Below, one piece after another: positions 1,439-40,107 of a stretch of DNA of 64,000 nucleotides. This DNA is from a phage, in sequence record OZ346158.1. One strand, written 5' to 3'. The translations under genes were made by a program, and so were the position numbers. The notes under the pieces are model-generated. The model was given only the letters and a program-made list of their open reading frames with translations, ran no database searches and was not told the origin of the DNA. Numbering within the stretch: the first letter of the stretch is position 1; each line of letters begins with the position of its first letter.

Positions 1439-3510
1439 TGGCAACAGCTGTTTTTAAACCTTACCGTGATTACTCTACAATGGCTGCACAGTTTCATTAC
1501 CGCACAGTTCAGGATACTGCCGTTCCTGGTAGAGATTATGATCATGTTGAGGGCGATGTAACTATCCCAGTTGGGGCAACCAGTATTGAGATCCCAGTGG
1601 AAATTGTTGACAAATTACCCAACAGGTTGCCAAGAAGCTTCTTTATGGAGTTTTCATCAAAATCTCAAGGAGTGATGATTGGAACACAAAGGGCGAAATG
1701 TACAATAGTTTCAGATGAGAATCTTGACAGGATATCTTGGGATACTGTTGAGGAGAGAATGTTTCACCCAAGATATTGGGTTACAACCACTCAGCAGACT
1801 GAAAGTACCTGTATTGTTGCAGATAACAACTGTTGTATTAACCGTTTAGTGTCAAGAACATATGGAGGTATGGCTGGGTGCATTTGGGAAACAGTTGACA
1901 AGTATGACCATTTCGGTATTGGGTTTGATGATCACTATGAGATGAGAAACACCAAGCTTTGGTTCAGAATGTCAATAACCAACGCCAGCAACTTCTCCAC
2001 TCCTGAAAAGATGATTATGACTGTAGACCTTGTTGATGGCACAATCATCTATGTTCCTTTAGCTCAATATGCTGTCAGCATCTCAGAGGATAAAAATGTT
2101 GCAGAAATTCATATTGATTTTGAGGACTGCGTCGGGATGGACCAGAACAACAACATGATGGGTGTTGATCCTCGGCAGGTGAGAAGGATTTTAATACCAC
2201 TTATGCCTAAAGACTGGGTAAGTAATAGCACAGATCCAAGAACGGAAAATGTAGAGTGTGAGTTGCGCCTAGATCTGCTTCAGCCAGACACAGGCTGGAA
2301 AATGATGCAACTTAATAATATCCAGGTGAGAGAGCACGACGTTGGGATCTGCACCGCATATGACGATATGTGGAACGTGTCCCCTTTAAGGGTGTTGAAC
2401 AATATCAAGCGTCTGGGCTATACCGGAACCATAAACCATTATGTTGGTATGAGTCATTATTATGACTACACATGGTCAGGAACCCAATGGTCTATAAACA
2501 GAACAGGAGCGCTAAACGCTGCAGCTTATAAATGGCATGATGATTTTATGTACAATGCCAAACGACATAACTTCGACGTTATGCAATCTGTAAGTTTTGA
2601 GCTTTTCAGCGATGCCTGCCCGTTGGAATGGACCCAAAGAGACTGGAACGATAACTACGCTAAAACAGGGTATACACCTTGTAGCTACCTCCTGTCTCCA
2701 ACCATTGAAGAGGGTATGAATTTCCTTACTGCAGTATTTAAGAATTTTGCATCAGCCGCTATGAGAAACAACCTGCCAGTGATTATGCAGGTTGGTGAAC
2801 CGTGGTGGTGGTACAATACCGATACTCGTAGACCTTGTATTTATGATTACCCTACAAAGCAGGCGTTTTATGATGAGACAGGTGAGTATGCATTAGATAT
2901 TGGGACTATTGACGATCCTAAAACTGGCGGTGTTTACGACAAGTATGTAGCATTTTGTCGTGGTAAGCTTGGCGCTCGTATTGCTGCTATTTCAAAGGCA
3001 ATAAAGGCACACGCTGCATCAGCTCAGATGACAGCTCTGCTGTTTTTCCCAACCATTATGGAAACCGAGCTTACGCAAAAGCTTAACCTTGCTGACCAAT
3101 ATAAAAAGGAAGCAGGTGCTCTTGATTTCTTCTGCACCGAGTGCTACGATTGGGTGATGCAGGGAGGTATTGAAAAGGCAAAAGAGTCTGTAAACATACC
3201 TATCGTTAAGTTAGGTTGGCAACCGTCTGAAATACAATACCTTGCAGGGTTCGTTCCTAGTAAAGAGCTTGCTCCGGTATATGGTTACGACCCAACTAGG
3301 AATTACCAAGAATTTTTATGGAGATGTATTTGCGGAAACATGGCAACTATAGAGTATAGATACCCTGAGGTAAAACAGTATGTGTGGGCATACCCGCAAG
3401 TAATGTCTGACAGCATCACTGTTACCGCTAGAGATTCTACCGTGCTTCATATGGGGCAGGTTGCTCTGAAAGGGTATGTAGAAGATGTTGTCCCGCCAGA
3501 CTTCTCATAA
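1438..3510 (+). CDS. hypothetical large virion protein (690 aa)
   Basis: Long uninterrupted ORF, GGAGGG RBS, translationally coupled to upstream gene; function not recognisable. Confidence 0.65.
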   Translation: MATAVFKPYRDYSTMAAQFHYRTVQDTAVPGRDYDHVEGDVTIPVGATSIEIPVEIVDKLPNRLPRSFFMEFSSKSQGVMIGTQRAKCTIVSDENLDRISWDTVEERMFHPRYWVTTTQQTESTCIVADNNCCINRLVSRTYGGMAGCIWETVDKYDHFGIGFDDHYEMRNTKLWFRMSITNASNFSTPEKMIMTVDLVDGTIIYVPLAQYAVSISEDKNVAEIHIDFEDCVGMDQNNNMMGVDPRQVRRILIPLMPKDWVSNSTDPRTENVECELRLDLLQPDTGWKMMQLNNIQVREHDVGICTAYDDMWNVSPLRVLNNIKRLGYTGTINHYVGMSHYYDYTWSGTQWSINRTGALNAAAYKWHDDFMYNAKRHNFDVMQSVSFELFSDACPLEWTQRDWNDNYAKTGYTPCSYLLSPTIEEGMNFLTAVFKNFASAAMRNNLPVIMQVGEPWWWYNTDTRRPCIYDYPTKQAFYDETGEYALDIGTIDDPKTGGVYDKYVAFCRGKLGARIAAISKAIKAHAASAQMTALLFFPTIMETELTQKLNLADQYKKEAGALDFFCTECYDWVMQGGIEKAKESVNIPIVKLGWQPSEIQYLAGFVPSKELAPVYGYDPTRNYQEFLWRCICGNMATIEYRYPEVKQYVWAYPQVMSDSITVTARDSTVLHMGQVALKGYVEDVVPPDFS

Positions 3511-33596: not shown

Positions 33597-34361
33597 TTGA
33601 AATTTATCTACAAAGAACACTACCACAAAGGTGTTGTGTGGAGCCTATTTGACGGATCTGGTGGTGCAGTCATTGACTGGGCAAAAGCTGGATATCTGTG
33701 CCTGTGCTTTAACGCAGAAGGTGCTGACCACGGCAGTTATGCAGAGGTGATCACCGATCATCCAAATATTCACTATGTAGATTATTGGATTGATCCATGG
33801 TTCCCTCAGGAAACTTTCTGCATGTACCCAGCTCCGGACTTTGTTCTTGCATTTCCTCCGTGCACCCACTTAGCGGTGTCAGGTGCTGCACACTTTAAGA
33901 AGAAGCTGGCTAAGGACCCGTTGATCCAGATTAATGCTGTAAAGGATGCTCGGGTTGCAGAAGAGTTGGGAGAGATTTACGATTGCCCGTGGCATGTAGA
34001 GAATCCTGTGGGTGTTATGTCCACACTGTGGCGCAAACCTGATTACCGTTTTCACCCTTCTGACTATGGCGGGTATTTACCGGAGGATGATGTAAACCCC
34101 TGGTTTCCTGAATTTATAGCTCCACGTGATGCCTATCCAAAAATAACTTGCGGCTGGATAGGTAATGGATTTATAATCCCGGCCACAAAACCTGTCCCGC
34201 AAATAGTTGACGCGGTTAGCGGGTATTCCATGCAACACGCCAAGCTGGGTGGAAAGAGTGCAAGAACGAAGATGATCCGAAGCCTCACACCACGTGGCTG
34301 GGCAAAAGCCGTATTCTTAGCAAACGAGCCTGTAGTAAGGAGCAGAATTAATGGGAAGTAA
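33597..34361 (+). CDS. C5-cytosine methyltransferase-like protein (short; PCT in place of PCQ)
   Basis: TTG start 6 nt after AGGAGA; motif I-like VWSLFDGSGGA, motif IV-like AFPPCTHLAVSGA, motif VI-like WHVENPVG. Confidence 0.5.
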   Translation: MKFIYKEHYHKGVVWSLFDGSGGAVIDWAKAGYLCLCFNAEGADHGSYAEVITDHPNIHYVDYWIDPWFPQETFCMYPAPDFVLAFPPCTHLAVSGAAHFKKKLAKDPLIQINAVKDARVAEELGEIYDCPWHVENPVGVMSTLWRKPDYRFHPSDYGGYLPEDDVNPWFPEFIAPRDAYPKITCGWIGNGFIIPATKPVPQIVDAVSGYSMQHAKLGGKSARTKMIRSLTPRGWAKAVFLANEPVVRSRINGK

Positions 34362-36429
34362 ATTTATGGCATCTGCATACAACCGTTTCGGTGAGCCAAA
34401 CCCGAAAGCAACTAAGTATAAAAGTGGGGGAAGTGTGAAACGAGACTATCGTGATGAAAAAGAGGTTGAAACTGTAGAGACTGTTTTAGAAAATACTAAA
34501 ATTGTCCCTGTTCCACAACAAAATATCGGTCTGATGGCTGCACAATATTTTGGTGTGCGATCAGCATTGTCTCAAGAAGACGGTGTGACAGTTACTGCAA
34601 CATATTTCCCATATTACGACCGCTACGGAAATCTGTCAGGTTTCAAAAAGCGTGACTGGACGATTCCTAAAGAGCAAAGGGGCCATTTCTCAGTTGTTGG
34701 CATAGTAAAGGCTAACTCTCAGATGTTTGGGCAAAAGCTGTGTGCATCTTCCAACAACCGTAAGCAAATTAACGTTTGTGAGGGGGAAGGTGATGTTATT
34801 GCAGCATGGCAGGCTGCATATCAGATACAAGTAAAAGGGATTCTCACCAACGCTAAAGCCCCGGCAAAGGTGAAGCAGTGGGCTAAAGAGGTCCAGGACG
34901 GGATCGATGCAGTTATCAACGGTGGTGATCTGGCAGGAAAACCCTGCCTACCTTTTGTTGGAATTAACTGTGGATGTGCAAACGCAGTAGATACTTTTGC
35001 AAACAATGAGAAGTTTATCCGTAGCTATGGAACAGTTGTGCTGGCAATGGATAACGATGCAGCTAACGAGGTAGAGAAGCAAAAACACGTCATTAAAGGT
35101 GTCGAGGCCACGCACAATATCGCAGCATTTTTGATGGCTGATAACGTTTACCACGTAGAATACCCTGGTGAAGTAAACGACCCTGACGGTGTAAAAGATA
35201 TCCGAGACATGCTGAAGGCTAAAAAGCTGGAAGATATTGTCAACATGTTCCGGCATCCTGTTAAATATGTGCCTGATGCTGTGTCGGATTTAGAAGACTT
35301 CTCTATCGAGTCTTTGCGGAAAAAGACTTCCAACGGGGTAGATATCAGCGCAGAGTTCCCAAAACTGCAAAAAATGCTAAAAGGCTTGCACAAAGGTACA
35401 CTCGTAATGCTTACAGGCCCATCAGGTGGCGGTAAAACAACCGTAGCTAAAAAACTGGAACACTGTATTGCAAGATACCTAATGGACCCGACATGCCCGA
35501 AGGCTGATGACTATGAAGAGGATGATCGTCTATGTATGATCCATCTTGAGGAGGACCCAGAGGAAGCAATTAACTCCTTGTATGCAAACCAGTTAGGGTT
35601 TGATGTTAAAGAGTTTGTTGAAGATCCTAGCCAGTTTTTAACTGATCAAGAACACGCAGAGATTCATCAGTCATGGGCAAAAGCTGGAAAAATCAAAGTG
35701 TTCAAACATTTCGGGTCTATTCCGGTGGATGAGTTGATTACCAAGCTTAAGCAAATGGTTTGCCTGTACCATTGCCGTTATATTGTGCTGGATCACCTGT
35801 CCATGGTAATTTCAGGGCTTAATGTTAAGGATGAGCGAAAAGAACTGGACATGGCTATGACCCAACTGGCTGCGTTTTGTAAGCAGTTTAATGTGTTTAT
35901 CTTGGTGATCGCTCACCTCAAACGTACAGAGATTGTGCCTCCTAAGGACAAGGATGGTAACCCGTTACCTTTCTGGTATCCTGTGCGAAAAGAGAATTTG
36001 CGAGGATCGGCGGGGCTTGAACAGTTGAGTTGGGTAGTCATAGGTGTCGAGGCCGAAGAAATGGTGGATCGTTCTCGTGGACGTGTCCGTCTGGTAGGTC
36101 TTAAAAACCGTCCAGCAAAAACTCTAGGTATTGCTGACACTTTGGTTATGGACCCGCACACAGGTAAGTTCCATGATGCCAGTAATTGGTACTGGGACAA
36201 AGAAATGCAAATGTTTACAGACGGAGAAGGTGGGGAGGTTGTTTGGAGACCTCAGGCTATGTTTGAGGATCAGGAGCATGCAGTTGTAGAAACACCTATG
36301 GGCAAGGTTGTGGCTGATAAGGTTGTAACACCCACTGTCAAGCCTATTGACACGCAGGAAGACCTCCAATACGATGATCCATCCTCTGATCCGGTCCCTG
36401 GTTTTGAGGATGATGAAACACCTTTTTAA
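34351..36429 (+). CDS. primase-helicase (T7 gp4-like)
   Basis: 692 aa; TOPRIM-like CEGEGDVIAAWQA; helicase Walker A LTGPSGGGKTT and Walker B YIVLDHLSMV, with IAHLKR downstream. Confidence 0.8.
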   Translation: MGSKFMASAYNRFGEPNPKATKYKSGGSVKRDYRDEKEVETVETVLENTKIVPVPQQNIGLMAAQYFGVRSALSQEDGVTVTATYFPYYDRYGNLSGFKKRDWTIPKEQRGHFSVVGIVKANSQMFGQKLCASSNNRKQINVCEGEGDVIAAWQAAYQIQVKGILTNAKAPAKVKQWAKEVQDGIDAVINGGDLAGKPCLPFVGINCGCANAVDTFANNEKFIRSYGTVVLAMDNDAANEVEKQKHVIKGVEATHNIAAFLMADNVYHVEYPGEVNDPDGVKDIRDMLKAKKLEDIVNMFRHPVKYVPDAVSDLEDFSIESLRKKTSNGVDISAEFPKLQKMLKGLHKGTLVMLTGPSGGGKTTVAKKLEHCIARYLMDPTCPKADDYEEDDRLCMIHLEEDPEEAINSLYANQLGFDVKEFVEDPSQFLTDQEHAEIHQSWAKAGKIKVFKHFGSIPVDELITKLKQMVCLYHCRYIVLDHLSMVISGLNVKDERKELDMAMTQLAAFCKQFNVFILVIAHLKRTEIVPPKDKDGNPLPFWYPVRKENLRGSAGLEQLSWVVIGVEAEEMVDRSRGRVRLVGLKNRPAKTLGIADTLVMDPHTGKFHDASNWYWDKEMQMFTDGEGGEVVWRPQAMFEDQEHAVVETPMGKVVADKVVTPTVKPIDTQEDLQYDDPSSDPVPGFEDDETPF

Positions 36430-36443
36430 TGTTTAACAAAGAG

Positions 36444-36475
36444 TGGGAGGGGTAGTACAACCGCCTCCCCTTTAA
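36444..36475 (+). terminator. possible rho-independent terminator
   Basis: GGGAGGGG ... CCTCCCC hairpin followed by short TTT; weak. Confidence 0.35.
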
Positions 36476-36487
36476 GGAGAACTGTAT

Positions 36488-38911
36488 ATGAGCATGTGGT
36501 CGTTCGACTTTGAGTCATCCGGTTTGCTGGAAGATCCAGATCTTTATTATCACTGCGGCCTGTTTAAAGAGCTGAATAAGAACCGTTTTATGCTGTTCCT
36601 TCCTCTAAATGACCGCACACACTACTCCGAAGAGGATATAGAGAAGGCTAAGAACTTTATTCTGGCAAAGAAAACTCTTCATAAAGATTTTGAAGTTCGC
36701 ATAGCAGATTTTTCGGAGTTGGAAGGTTGGCTTACAGGCAATTCCGACTGGTCACCAACAGCTTTGAACTGCCATAACTGCTACAGTTATGACTTTATGC
36801 TGATGGAAAGATTATCCGGTATTCATTTTGATATGTTCCGTGATCCTAAATGCATGGGGACTATCAACGACCACCAGGTTAACCTGTTTGATACGTTGGC
36901 TATGAGCCGAATCTTGTGGCCTGATCGCCCTTTACCAAAAGGTTGTCCGGACGCTGTATTCAACCCGGTTACTAAGAAAATGCAACCTGTTGGTCCTCAC
37001 GGCCTTATGGCATGGGGCTACGCCCTTGGTAACCAGAAAGTTCAAATTGATGACTGGCGCGATCTTCCGCTGTGGAAATATGTGGATCGTGTGTTCGAGG
37101 ACGTTATCATCCAGGAGTTGCTCTGGAAAGAGTTGGTAGCGGAATCAAAAGGTGTATTCTACGGCAAATCTGACATGCAGAACTTTATGTATGACCCTGC
37201 CAAAGAGAAGCCTAAAGGATTCAAGAAGATTACCTGGAAGAATGCATTACGCCGAGGCATGCTGCAGCATTTCCTGATGGAGCTGCAGGCTCGACAGGGT
37301 GTGTATTTCGACATAGATGGGGCTATTGCTTTACGTGACCGCTGCGATGCGTGGATGAAAGAGATCGCTGATCGTGTTGAACCACAACTTCCTTTAAAAG
37401 AGTTATCAATGTCTCAGCGGCCTAAGTTCCCTGAAAAGCCGTTTAACCAGGATGGGACAATCTCCAATAATGGTTGGAAATGGTTAAAAGATAAGCTTGG
37501 CTATCCTGTAGACATGAGCGCTTTAGAATTCAAAGCCCCGCCTAAGCGAGCATTTACCTCCACAGGAGATGTCAGCAAGATGGGGATAAAATGGTGCGAA
37601 GAGATGGGCTGCAAAGACCCCGACAAGATGGCTGATTTCTTGAGAGGTTATATTAAGGGCACCTCCACACCACAACCTTTACCTAAAGAGCTGATGGATC
37701 AGGCAATAAGTGATCTGCAGCAGAAGCGAATGCCTGACTGCAAGATACCTATGAAAATCAGCAATCAGGACGACATTAAGCGATACCTGATCAGTGCTGG
37801 TTGGCTTCCGACAATGTGGAGAACTAAGGATGTAACTAAGGACAGCAAGAAGAAAGCTCTACCTGATGCAGATGTTGATGCACGAGTATATGCATACATG
37901 GACGAGCTTTTAGAGTCAGAGTATTGTGACCTAATTATCAACTTCTGGAACAAAACTGATGCTAAGTTTCAGACAACAGTGCACAAGTTCCGAAGCTTTC
38001 CTAACTCCGAAAGGATTAAAAAGGAAGTGTTCGGGAAAATACGCAGAAAAGCCAGGGCACTTATTACTTCTCCGCAACTGAAAGATACGTTTGGACACCT
38101 ATGTCCGAATCTTGAAAAATTGAACGGAGAGATGGCTAAAGATATCGTCTTGTGGTTATCATTGCGAAACCGCAGATCGGTCCTTGATCCAATCAAGGAG
38201 GATAAGGTTGATACTGGTCTTCTTAATCACCCACGTTTGAAGATTGACCATAAGCTTCCTGCTAAAAGCTCTGGATTAACAAACACTTCCCGACAGAAAC
38301 ACAGTATTTGTGCAAACATGCCTAAACCATCTCCTAAAGTGGTTATGGGTAAAGAGATGCGTAGCTTGTGGGGTGTTCCTCCTGGATACTTTGAGATCGG
38401 TATTGACGGGTCCAACTTAGAGCAGCTTATCGGGGCTTGGGGTGCCTTTGAGTTCGACAACGGCTTGTACTATGATGTTGTAAGTAACGGGGACGCACAC
38501 CAAAACAATGCTGAGGCATATACAAAAGTAGCAGGCAGAGAGGTGTCTCGTAACGACGGTAAACCTATCACGTATGGGGTTATGTACGGGGCACAAAAAG
38601 ATAAAGTTGCAGATATGCTGGATATCTCCCCAGAGTTGGGGCAAAGGGTGATCGATGCACTTTGGGATGCCAACCCCGGTCTTAAGGGGCGCAAAGAGGA
38701 TCTGGAGAAATTCTGGGAAGCAACGGGTAAGAAGTTTATCTACTCTTTTGATGGTCATGCCATCTGGACCCGATCTAAACACTCTTTACTTAATGCATAC
38801 CAACAGAATGGTGGTGCATCGCTGTGTGACTTGGTTGGGATACTTATGCACCACCAAATGGTGAAGCGTGGGTGGTACGATGAAGGTGTTCGTCGTATTA
38901 TTTATTACCAT
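36488..38911 (+). CDS. DNA polymerase family A, exon 1 (3'-5' exo and most of pol domain)
   Basis: Exo I-like FDFESSG; motif A-like YFEIGIDGSNLEQLIGA; motif B-like RNDGKPITYGVMYGAQKDKVAD; reading frame ends ...IIYYH, then K and stop, i.e. just before the expected motif C HDE. Confidence 0.8.
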
Positions 38912-39753
38912 AAATAACATTGTGGCTTCGTGCAGTGATGCACGTCGAAAACCTCTTTAATTGACGGGAAGGCTAAGTTGACTTTTACACCTAAACATGG
39001 TAAAAGCTCAATATGCTAATCCGCAGCGAAGACTAAAGGGGTGTAGTTAAAATGGCTAGATCAGTTGATTATCACGGATATACCGTGTTTGATGATGGAA
39101 CAATACCTTTATCGAAACGTGATCATACAACAATGTTCTGTTTTGATAATGGTCGAGGTTACCTTTGCGTAACCATGTTCATCGAGGGGAAGCAGTGCAC
39201 AAAAGGTGTCCACCACTTGGTTGCTGAATGCTTTGTATCAAACCCTGATCCTGAAAGGCTCACATGGGTGAACCATAAGGACGGAAACAAATACAACAAT
39301 GCATACTGGAACCTTGAATGGACCACCCCTGGTGGAAATATCAAACACGCTTATGATAATGACCTCAGAGTAAGGCCAGTCGGTGAGTATAATGCCAACG
39401 CTGTACTGACCGAGGATGAGGTAACGGAGATTTGCGAACTGTTACAAAGTGGTTTACGACAATGCGAGATTAGGGATCTTGGGTATCCTTATGAGACGGT
39501 CAGAGCCATAAAGCAAAGAAGACAGTGGAAACATATCTCTAAAAACTACACCTGGTAGTAACGTTCAGAGACTATCGAAAGCATAGCGCCAACATAAATT
39601 GGTGCGAAGAAGCGAGTAGAGTAGGCCAGCAAGTGCGGTCGAAATGGGAGGTGCCTTGGTAACAAGGTAGTGAGATAGTCCGATCCATACAGGAAACTGT
39701 ATGGCTGTGCACGTAATGGTGCGGGGTAGCTTAACGACCTACCTGAACTATTG
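38912..39753 (+). ncRNA. putative group I self-splicing intron interrupting the DNA polymerase gene
   Basis: 5' exon ends in U, intron ends in G; P1 possible between exon CCAU+AA and UUGUGG at 38920..38925 (U-G wobble at splice site); P2-like hairpin CGTGCA-GTGA-TGCACG; P7-like AGACUA (39568) / UAGUC (39676); P9-like hairpin CCATACAG-GAAA-CTGTATGG; contains HNH ORF. Confidence 0.7.
39052..39558 (+). CDS. HNH homing endonuclease (intron-encoded)
   Basis: 168 aa; HNH motif HHLVAECF...VNHKDGNKYNNAYWNLEW; lies inside the putative intron. Confidence 0.8.
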   Translation: MARSVDYHGYTVFDDGTIPLSKRDHTTMFCFDNGRGYLCVTMFIEGKQCTKGVHHLVAECFVSNPDPERLTWVNHKDGNKYNNAYWNLEWTTPGGNIKHAYDNDLRVRPVGEYNANAVLTEDEVTEICELLQSGLRQCEIRDLGYPYETVRAIKQRRQWKHISKNYTW

Positions 39754-40107
39754 GATGAGTACCAACTTCAGGTCCCTGACACACCTAAGTATAAGACTGT
39801 GTACACCTTCGACACAATTGAAGAATTGGAAGCATTTAAGGCAGAGCAGGAGGCCAAACTTCATGTGTTCGACGGTCATAAGTACAAAAAGGCACGCAAG
39901 GATGAAAACGGAAACGAAGTGGTTGACAGAGACGGAAACACGGTGTACGATCCTATCCTGAACGATGACGGAAAGCTTGAACTTATCTGGAGCCCTGTGG
40001 GTGAAATGGTGGTGCATTGCTTCTGGCAAGCTTCTAAAATGATGGGCGTTCCATTCCAGATCACAGGTGAATACTTGTGCGGTCGTAACTGGGGTGATTG
40101 TCACTAA
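39754..40107 (+). CDS. DNA polymerase family A, exon 2 (motif C and C-terminus)
   Basis: Begins DEYQLQVPD, so the spliced junction reads YYH|DEYQLQV (motif C HDE); ends ...GRNWGDCH resembling Pol I-family C-termini; no convincing independent start/RBS. Confidence 0.7.
   Translation, partial: DEYQLQVPDTPKYKTVYTFDTIEELEAFKAEQEAKLHVFDGHKYKKARKDENGNEVVDRDGNTVYDPILNDDGKLELIWSPVGEMVVHCFWQASKMMGVPFQITGEYLCGRNWGDCH

Follow-up and report, generated by a model that had tools for sequence, protein, structure and literature searches.

How does a phage make a complete DNA polymerase from a gene whose reading frame halts immediately before the catalytic motif C? The locus lies in a 64,000-nucleotide stretch of DNA (OZ346158.1; the window hereafter) from a Vequintavirus, an rV5-like coliphage with 98–99% identity to the BASEL phages Bas51 and Bas58. 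Our analysis very strongly favours the answer that this essential family A polymerase gene carries a group I intron of subgroup IA2, mobile and self-splicing, which separates the motif C codons for His and Asp. The case was made in silico from the exon junction, an RNA core with covariation, the homology of an intron-encoded endonuclease and a presence/absence polymorphism at the insertion site, and we infer from sequence that splicing takes place in the window's own phage. The intron is real, belongs to an ordinary, textbook class of mobile element and was known before, and it leaves current understanding unchallenged.

The polymerase exons and their junction

Exon 1 of the polymerase gene (36488..38911, plus strand) was defined from the ORF list, Pfam and alignment to T7 gp5 and comprises 808 codons, which include a 3'-5' exonuclease motif, motif A (EIGIDGSNLE) and motif B (RNDGKPITYGVMYGAQ). 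As originally described, the ORF halts before motif C and reads ...IIYYHK*; its last exon base is U38911 and its stop codon is the UAA at 38915-38917. On its own, exon 1 scores 27.9 bits (E 1.5e-6) against Pfam DNA_pol_A, below the cut-off of 34.3. Exon 2 (39754..40107, plus strand; 117 codons plus stop) reads DEYQLQVPD...GRNWGDCH*, with the GRNWGDCH ending at 40107 that had been pointed out, and is contiguous with exon 1 in intron-less phages. Its first two residues, Asp-Glu, are the catalytic pair of motif C, and it matches PHROG 8888 'DNA polymerase' (E 5.8e-58). Because this Asp-Glu is absent from exon 1, the polymerase is incomplete without exon 2, which settles in the negative a question raised with the original prediction.

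Joining the two exons yields a 925-aa protein in which the junction ...IIYYH|DEYQLQV is motif C; the corresponding nucleotide reading of the predicted spliced junction is ...UAUUACCAU|GAUGAGUACC. The spliced protein aligns to T7 gp5 (E 8e-16, residues 633-813, motif C included) with rriiyyHDEyql opposite T7 yMAWVHDEIQV across the junction. Together with the PHROG 8888 match, this alignment provides the comparison of exon 2 with PolA C-termini that had been proposed as a check. Motifs A, B and C thus occur in order, with homology to T7 gp5, in a host gene of family A. The interruption falls between the motif C His and Asp codons and corresponds to T7 H653|D654, which we take to be H881|D882 of E. 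coli Pol I in motif C numbering.

The same junction is found uninterrupted in nature. In the intron-less sister phages JES2013, pangalan, C15 and ECP2309, 183 codons spanning the junction are unbroken at 97–100% identity, and at the amino-acid level intron-less sister phages match the joined exons at 100%. A Logan assembly contains, as one gene, precisely what splicing of the window would yield, and the spliced product computed for the HeinrichReichert locus is the NCBI DNA polymerase of phages DrSchubert and nomine. Removal of the interval therefore restores both frame and motif, and the predicted join of 38911 to 39754 is borne out by the alignment with T7 HDE and by intron-less alleles with exactly this junction. 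The same codon boundary, ...YH|DE..., hosts an intron in 12/12 phages examined. The exons differ from the intron-less allele at 34 positions, of which 7, all synonymous, cluster within the opening 33 nt of exon 2 (P ~1.5e-5). The synonymous nature of the differences near the junction shows the intact exons to be under purifying selection.

The position of the stop codons also bears on whether the insertion acts at the level of protein. In relatives, the polymerase gene does contain an intein-like insert that keeps the frame, at another position, and an intein or other protein-level element could be imagined here too. However, the interval contains an ORF of its own and matches an RNA model, and the polymerase frame meets stop codons from 4 nt into the interval onwards, so that this reading is already refuted and we give it practically no weight.

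The intron RNA

The group I intron (38912..39753, plus strand) is IA2-like and 842 nt long, as anticipated, and was delimited by RF00028, the intron-less allele (which fixes the boundaries) and covariation. It begins AAAUAACAUUGUGG and ends ...CUAUUG; the U at the end of the 5' exon and the G closing the interval, both foreseen, are U38911 and the terminal omega-G, G39753. In unspliced RNA, translation is halted by the in-frame UAA. A default Rfam scan of the whole window at the gathering threshold gave no match, and a permissive RF00028 scan found 38902..39703 at 38.9 bits against a gathering score of 50. This match is full length (model positions 1-253), lies far beyond chance, with an E-value of 3.1e-8 for the region and of 2.1e-6 for the 64-kb window, and is the sole one in the window. 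The score lies below the cut-off because a 507-nt ORF (a 510-nt insertion) occupies the P6 loop. ORF-less orthologues at the same site pass the gathering score, with 91.2 bits for 18-1-2, 77.3 for K470, 72.5 for JLBYU08 and 64.7 for EPFV3. The group I covariance model suggested earlier as a check thus recovers a complete core. Several relatives show two core matches; the window-wide scan revealed no second intron core in the window, and no tRNAs were found in it.

The low score of the window's own copy is what would be expected of a decayed intron without ribozyme activity, in which case the polymerase would be a pseudogene and the phage would use another polymerase. We consider this highly improbable. 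The score is accounted for by the 507-nt ORF in P6, the core shares 90% identity with that of the ORF-less JLBYU08 intron, and all of the core helices in the window form standard pairs. Furthermore, neither exon is disrupted and each is held by purifying selection, and no second polymerase was noticed among the annotated features in 50 kb of the Bas51 genome.

The helices of the predicted functional intron, all on the plus strand, begin with P1 (38908..38925), in which CCAU|AA (38908-38913) pairs with the guide UUGUGG (38920-38925) and places the wobble U38911.G38922 at the splice site. This is the pairing that had been proposed. P1 is invariant in 11 homologues, and the U.G wobble at the 5' splice site and the 3'-terminal G are invariant in the 12 homologues examined. 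P10, read by eye, pairs CAUU 38918-38921 with GAUG 39754-39757 of exon 2 and is imperfect in K470 and SPA01. The P2 hairpin CGUGCA-GUGA-UGCACG (38929..38944) has compensatory changes at 6/6 pairs, with 100% of alignment cells paired. The same complete pairing is seen for P3, in which CCUCUU (38952..38957) pairs with GGGAGG (39646..39651, identified by covariation) and 3/6 pairs are compensatory. P4 (38962..39025) joins UGaCGGG (38962-38968) to UCCGCA (39020-39025) with 90.9% of cells paired, some being unpaired in the MAFFT alignment, and encloses P5/P5a/P5b (~38970-39019), modelled by single-sequence fold only. The 5' strand of P6 (ACUA...GGGGUGUAGU; 39032..39047) pairs in the MFE fold with 39545-39559 to give a duplex of -18.0 kcal/mol that 3/300 shuffles match; four further homologues with an HNH gene show this long-range pairing too.

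P7 is formed by GACUA (39570..39574) and UAGUC (39676..39680, supported by covariation) and makes a pseudoknot with P3; 100% of its cells are paired and a U-A pair becomes C-G in 3 homologues. The AGACUA/UAGUC pair of the original prediction therefore stands, except that AGACUA starts at 39569 and not at 39568. P7.1 (~39575-39620) varies in length and is followed by a GUA linker (39621-39623), invariant in 11/11 sequences of alignment A1, and by P7.2 (39624-39640; 4/6 pairs compensatory). The P8 hairpin UGCCUUG-GUAA-CAAGGUA (39652..39669) has 6/7 compensatory pairs. Beyond it lie P9 (39685-39704; 4/7), a hairpin whose coordinates had been given correctly, P9.1 (39708-39723; 2/5) and P9.2 (39725-39743; 3/5). 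Subgroup IA2 is recognised by two additional helices, P7.1 and P7.2, which lie between P7 and P3' and are linked by G-U-A (PMC3428280). Judged by sequence, the features of this intron are those of IA2, namely P7.1/P7.2 and the GUA linker, with P7.2 supported by covariation.

Covariation was assessed across 11 homologues from Escherichia, Salmonella, Pectobacterium, Aeromonas, Pseudomonas and Vibrio phages; phiTE, which is nearly identical to CB7, was left out of the final alignment. Overall 97.6% of cells are paired, and in 30/59 pairs both partners have changed. For covariation the structure scores 0.50, compared with 0.22 for shuffles (0/500 reach 0.50) and at most 0.11 for slid partners. 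The structure exceeds every slid control and beats 500/500 shuffles on 4/5 measures, the count of further pair types being reached by 43/500. P5, P6 and P7.1 lie outside this count because MAFFT could not align them across genera, and were assessed by single-sequence fold or duplex energy only.

These data also weigh on a quite different arrangement, in which the transcript is never spliced, polypeptides of 808+1 and 117 aa assemble into a split polymerase, and the interval is a free-standing endonuclease cassette. The division of Aeh1 NrdA by mobE is a comparable case, cited in the description of CB7 (PMC7344957). Both halves are indeed open reading frames, exon 2 could formally start at TTG 39751, several GenBank records list two separate 'DNA polymerase' CDSs, and one HNH-associated insertion in CB7 is unspliced (PMC7344957). 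Since the break falls between the motif C His and Asp-Glu, the active site would then have to be shared between two chains. Moreover, no Shine-Dalgarno sequence is present upstream of exon 2 or of 39751, the complete, covarying ribozyme core would be left without a reason for its conservation, and ORF-less versions retain a core of 254-329 nt. In addition, the homologous intron at the same site in CB7, which carries CB7_50, is spliced in vivo, as established by RT-PCR and Sanger sequencing (PMC7344957), which is indirect evidence for self-splicing here. We therefore regard the split enzyme as a very unlikely explanation, though less so than a decayed intron.

For the favoured self-splicing intron, the polymerase gene would be transcribed as a single pre-mRNA and the intron RNA would fold into P1-P10. 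Free guanosine would attack after U38911, within the U.G wobble of P1, and the released exon 1 would then attack after the terminal G39753, with exon 2 held in place by P10. The ligated message would encode the 925-aa polymerase with its YYHDEYQ motif intact.

The endonuclease gene in P6

The ORF looped out of P6 (39052..39558, plus strand) appears in the ORF list as predicted and encodes a 168-aa, I-HmuI-like HNH homing endonuclease. It matches I-HmuI (PDB 1U3E; E 4.5e-6, residues 12-100) and the PHROG 59 HNH endonuclease family (E 9.3e-38), and scores 17.7 bits against Pfam HNH_3, below the cut-off of 24.8. The H-N-N motif vnHkdgNkyNNaywNlew aligns with vdHkdgNkdNNlstNlrw of I-HmuI, the residue preceding the catalytic His being Asn in the window ORF and Asp in I-HmuI.

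The last codons of the gene (39545-39559) form the 3' strand of P6, and its Shine-Dalgarno-like GGGG lies within the 5' strand. In the folded intron, the endonuclease ribosome-binding site would thus be hidden in the P6 stem. The pairing over this site is retained in 5 HNH-bearing introns. We infer translational control of the endonuclease, its nicking activity and its nick site, which by analogy with I-HmuI would be on the template strand a few nt into exon 2. The most likely role of the enzyme is to nick the polymerase gene of co-infecting relatives that lack the intron, close to where the intron inserts, after which recombinational repair would copy the intron into the nicked allele (homing). 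Indirect evidence for nicking and homing comes from the presence/absence polymorphism among near-identical phages and from the synonymous cluster at the start of exon 2. As a mark of endonuclease immunity this cluster, though significant, is only suggestive: it does not cleanly track endonuclease presence, and EPFV3 has an ORF-less intron yet carries the 'HEG+' codons.

Relatives of the intron at and beyond motif C

Within Vequintavirus the site is empty, occupied by an ORF-less intron of 276 or 329 nt, or occupied by the 842-nt intron with its HNH gene. This genus-wide polymorphism offers a handy system for homing and marker-exclusion experiments, and the locus is a further case of a homing intron settled where an essential phage gene has its most conserved codons. 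The closest known counterparts, in the BASEL Vequintavirus phages Bas51 WalterGehring (MZ501111) and Bas58 HeinrichReichert (MZ501073) and in other rV5-like genomes, are 98–99% identical in DNA over the 3.6-kb gene and have the same 842-nt intron and HNH ORF, with point differences only. Bas51 has an extra free-standing endonuclease gene between primase/helicase and polymerase that is absent from the window. In the GenBank entries of these near-identical phages, the polymerase CDS is a two-piece join enclosing a 'putative homing endonuclease'; the boundaries of the BASEL introns were fixed by comparative genomics (PMC8594841). Many rV5-like records file the polymerase as two 'DNA polymerase' CDSs, or exon 2 as a 'hypothetical protein'. 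The correct annotation of the product is one 925-aa enzyme. Within the searchable literature, we found no dedicated description of, or splicing experiment on, the rV5-like polymerase intron; the discussion in the rV5 genome paper is confined to the terminase introns, and retron and defence papers that name Vequintavirinae and introns proved unrelated.

The intron of Pectobacterium phage CB7 (Certrevirus) has the same insertion point, RRIIYYH|DEYQLEV, and a core homologous to that of the window in P1-P4 and P7-P9.2, with compensatory changes. Its HNH ORF, CB7_50, is unrelated to the window's and starts in the P5 region, running through P4' and P6. In CB7 the polymerase gene is interrupted once more, by an intron in motif B that has no counterpart in the window. 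The introns of the T7-like phages phiI and W31 (I-TslI; Bonocora and Shub 2004) are reported to occupy polymerase site 881 in E. coli numbering, to belong to IA2 and to carry an HNH ORF in P6a with a ribosome-binding site placed to limit expression (PMC3428280). Site 881 is the motif C His, where the window intron sits. Both are podoviruses whose polymerase is far more distantly related, and the likeness is drawn from the reported site and class. SPO1, SP82 and Bastille (I-HmuI, I-HmuII and I-BasI) also have group I introns in family A polymerase genes that encode nicking endonucleases with an N-terminal HNH. The window ORF is homologous to I-HmuI, and here the likeness is one of gene and endonuclease; the hosts of these phages are Gram-positive and the insertion site is 674, in the fingers, rather than 881 (PMC3428280).

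The cargo at the motif C site is varied: an I-HmuI-like HNH gene in P6, a second HNH gene spanning P5 to P6 in phiTE and CB7, a LAGLIDADG gene in the P7.1 region of PVP-SE1, and none in four lineages. We judge the chances to be even that the motif C introns form a single RNA lineage which spread by horizontal transfer between phage groups unrelated to each other and, in doing so, swapped endonuclease genes in different loops on at least three occasions. Such a lineage may take in Vequintavirinae genera, Pakpunavirus, Plateaulakevirus, Vibrio phages and possibly the T7-like phiI and W31, and would, if real, constitute a natural series for endonuclease genes invading and abandoning a ribozyme.

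As a separate observation, the longest intron ORF overlaps P4' in A73, phiTE and CB7.

Reconstruction of the polymerase gene across the junction

The 3.6-kb polymerase region is 98–99% identical to that of rV5-like coliphages of the genus Vequintavirus (e.g. Bas51 WalterGehring and Bas58 HeinrichReichert), with matches in 125 phage records. Downstream of a primase/helicase gene (34351..36429; Pfam DnaB_C and AAA_25), the polymerase ORF runs from 36488 to 38917, its translation ending ...RRIIYYHK*, and the frame resumes at 39754 (DEYQLQVPD...GRNWGDCH*) after an 842-nt interval (38912..39753) that itself contains an ORF of 168 codons (39052..39558). Joining 38911 to 39754 yields a 925-aa protein, and the original prediction that this join rebuilds motif C is borne out both by alignment with T7 DNA polymerase and by intron-less sister alleles. 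The T7 alignment spans residues 633–813 (E 8e-16) and crosses the splice point (...rriiyyHDEyql versus ...yMAWVHDEIQV), where it covers motif C with the catalytic Asp-Glu. Exon 2 (39754..40107), which had been likened to polymerase C-termini, by itself matches PHROG 8888 'DNA polymerase' (5.8e-58). A tblastn search with 183 residues across the junction found the segment uninterrupted in the sister phages JES2013 (100% identity), pangalan, C15 and ECP2309; the JES2013 DNA reads TATTACCAT up to the junction and GACGAATATCAG beyond it, with an identical translation. A Logan assembly also contains, as a single gene, exactly the product that splicing of the window would give, and the HeinrichReichert product, spliced in silico, is recorded in NCBI, where DrSchubert and nomine are the phages whose DNA polymerase it is named as.

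A group I core at motif C

The default Rfam scan gave no match. A permissive scan recovered the predicted group I core as the sole match to the Rfam group I intron model RF00028 in the whole window (38902..39703, model positions 1–253), scoring 38.9 bits, below the 50-bit cut-off (E 3.1e-8 on the region, 2.1e-6 on the window), with a 510-nt insertion relative to the model located in P6; no second copy of the core was found in the window. The helices originally named lie where they were placed, save that the AGACUA strand begins at 39569 rather than 39568. Sister phages carry ORF-less introns at the same site (JLBYU08, 329 nt; EPFV3, 276 nt), and ORF-less introns exceed the gathering score (18-1-2, 91.2 bits; K470, 77.3; JLBYU08, 72.5; EPFV3, 64.7).

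With the ORF-deleted core as blastn query, 182 phage records proved to contain homologues. Every homologue examined has its intron after the His codon and before the Asp codon of motif C; the set comprises Vequintavirinae (Seunavirus SSE121 and PVP-SE1, Avunavirus 18-1-2, A73, Certrevirus phiTE and CB7) and phages of other groups (Aeromonas phiA019, Pseudomonas SPA01, Vibrio K470). A structure written from the window (P1, P2, P3, P4, the P7 pseudoknot, P7.2, P8, P9, P9.1 and P9.2) was scored on an alignment of 11 introns whose ORFs had first been trimmed. Standard pairs fill 97.6% of 631 cells, against 83% in shuffled and 35–43% in slid controls, and in 30 of the 59 pairs both positions change. 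Covariation on this structure scores 0.50, versus 0.22 for shuffles (none of 500 reaching 0.50) and no more than 0.11 when partners are slid. P1 is invariant, including its U.G wobble, and when the window's intron, trimmed of its ORF, is folded on its own, P1, P2, P5–P5b, P6, P7.2, P8 and P9 are recovered (z = -3.8). Because it has P7.1/P7.2 and an invariant GUA linker, the criterion quoted in PMC3428280, the intron belongs to subgroup IA2. A possible P10 can be read from the sequence between CAUU (38918–38921) and GAUG of exon 2. Exon 2 starts with GAU in intron-bearing alleles versus GAC in intron-less ones; of the 12 intron-bearing alleles, 11 have U at its position +3 and SPA01 has C, as does the intron-less allele, and this U would fit the P10 pairing.

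Both the observation and the interpretation originally put forward are correct: the element in polymerase motif C is very probably a true mobile group I intron of subgroup IA2 that encodes an I-HmuI-like HNH endonuclease, and we infer that it splices and homes in the window's own phage. It is a textbook kind of element, already recognised in this phage group. GenBank records MZ501073 and MZ501111 give the polymerase CDS as a two-piece join around a 'putative homing endonuclease', and comparative genomics was used to define intron boundaries in the BASEL paper (PMC8594841). In CB7, RT-PCR and Sanger sequencing established that the homologous intron, which interrupts the gene at the same codon, is spliced (PMC7344957). 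The T7-like phages phiI and W31 are reported (PMC3428280) to have IA2 introns at site 881 of the polymerase in E. coli numbering, the HNH ORF lying in P6a; by this description, position and architecture are the same as in the window.

The endonuclease ORF and its counterparts in related introns

The ORF at 39052..39558 had been read as an HNH endonuclease. This is confirmed by a match to PHROG 59 and by homology to I-HmuI (PDB 1U3E; E 4.5e-6, HNH motif aligned), the nicking HNH enzyme encoded in the polymerase intron of SPO1; Pfam HNH_3 fell below threshold on the ORF. The ORF is looped out of P6, whose strands are ACUA...GGGGUGUAGU (39032–39047), likely containing the Shine-Dalgarno sequence of the ORF, and the ORF's last codons (39545–39559). 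Long-range pairing covers the ribosome-binding site or start codon in all five introns with this HNH type, with P6 duplex energies of -13 to -30 kcal/mol that are better than those of shuffled partners (equalled by 0/300 shuffles in three introns, 3/300 in the window and 18/300 in SSE121). This suggests, without proving it, that translation of the endonuclease is limited by ribozyme folding.

In phiTE and CB7, this core carries a different HNH gene, starting in the P5 region. In place of the HNH gene in P6, the PVP-SE1 intron (2001..2919 of its locus, L014) has a LAGLIDADG gene after P7, in the P7.1 region, and its P6 is a short hairpin free of any ORF. Four lineages have no ORF in this core.

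Mobility and neighbouring elements

Phages of a single genus differ at this site: some have no insertion, others an ORF-less intron, and others again the intron together with the endonuclease gene. About 117 records share the polymerase C-terminus (identity at least 95%), and only about 31 of these have this endonuclease (identity at least 90%). Between the window and intron-less JES2013 there are 34 exon differences over 1354 nt; 7 of them, all synonymous, fall at the beginning of exon 2, in its first 33 nt (39754..39786; P about 1.5e-5). This cluster, which does not strictly follow endonuclease presence, would fit a recognition site or a co-conversion tract.

Other mobile elements occur in or near this gene. 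In VB-EcoM-WM (aa 672–994 of polymerase exon 1) and EPFV3, an insert of 323 aa that keeps the frame and bears intein hallmarks (starting CYSGDT, ending ...VAVCGN and followed by Cys) lies between polymerase GDAH and QNNAE; the same insert was judged present in Mangalyan solely from the extra span size in matches to the 3.6-kb region. The corresponding site, 38500/38501, has no insert in the window. Phages of other Vequintavirinae genera, namely SSE121 (2174..2815 of its locus, L006; RF00028, 63.8 bits), CB7, phiTE and 18-1-2, have a second group I intron in this gene, which separates KPITYG from VMYGAQ in motif B; the window is uninterrupted there (38578/38579). Including the intein, three mobile-element sites fall within about 140 codons of the polymerase. 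In some rV5-like genomes (e.g. MG065658, MW748998 and LC739541) the core query matches two places, the second being a related intron elsewhere in the genome, possibly the one known from the rV5 terminase; the introns mentioned in the rV5 genome paper are in the terminase only. A spacer of just 58 nt (36430..36487) separates the primase/helicase and polymerase genes of the window; in Bas51 WalterGehring a free-standing 735-nt 'putative homing endonuclease' gene (35734..36468 of its locus, L015) stands between the two.
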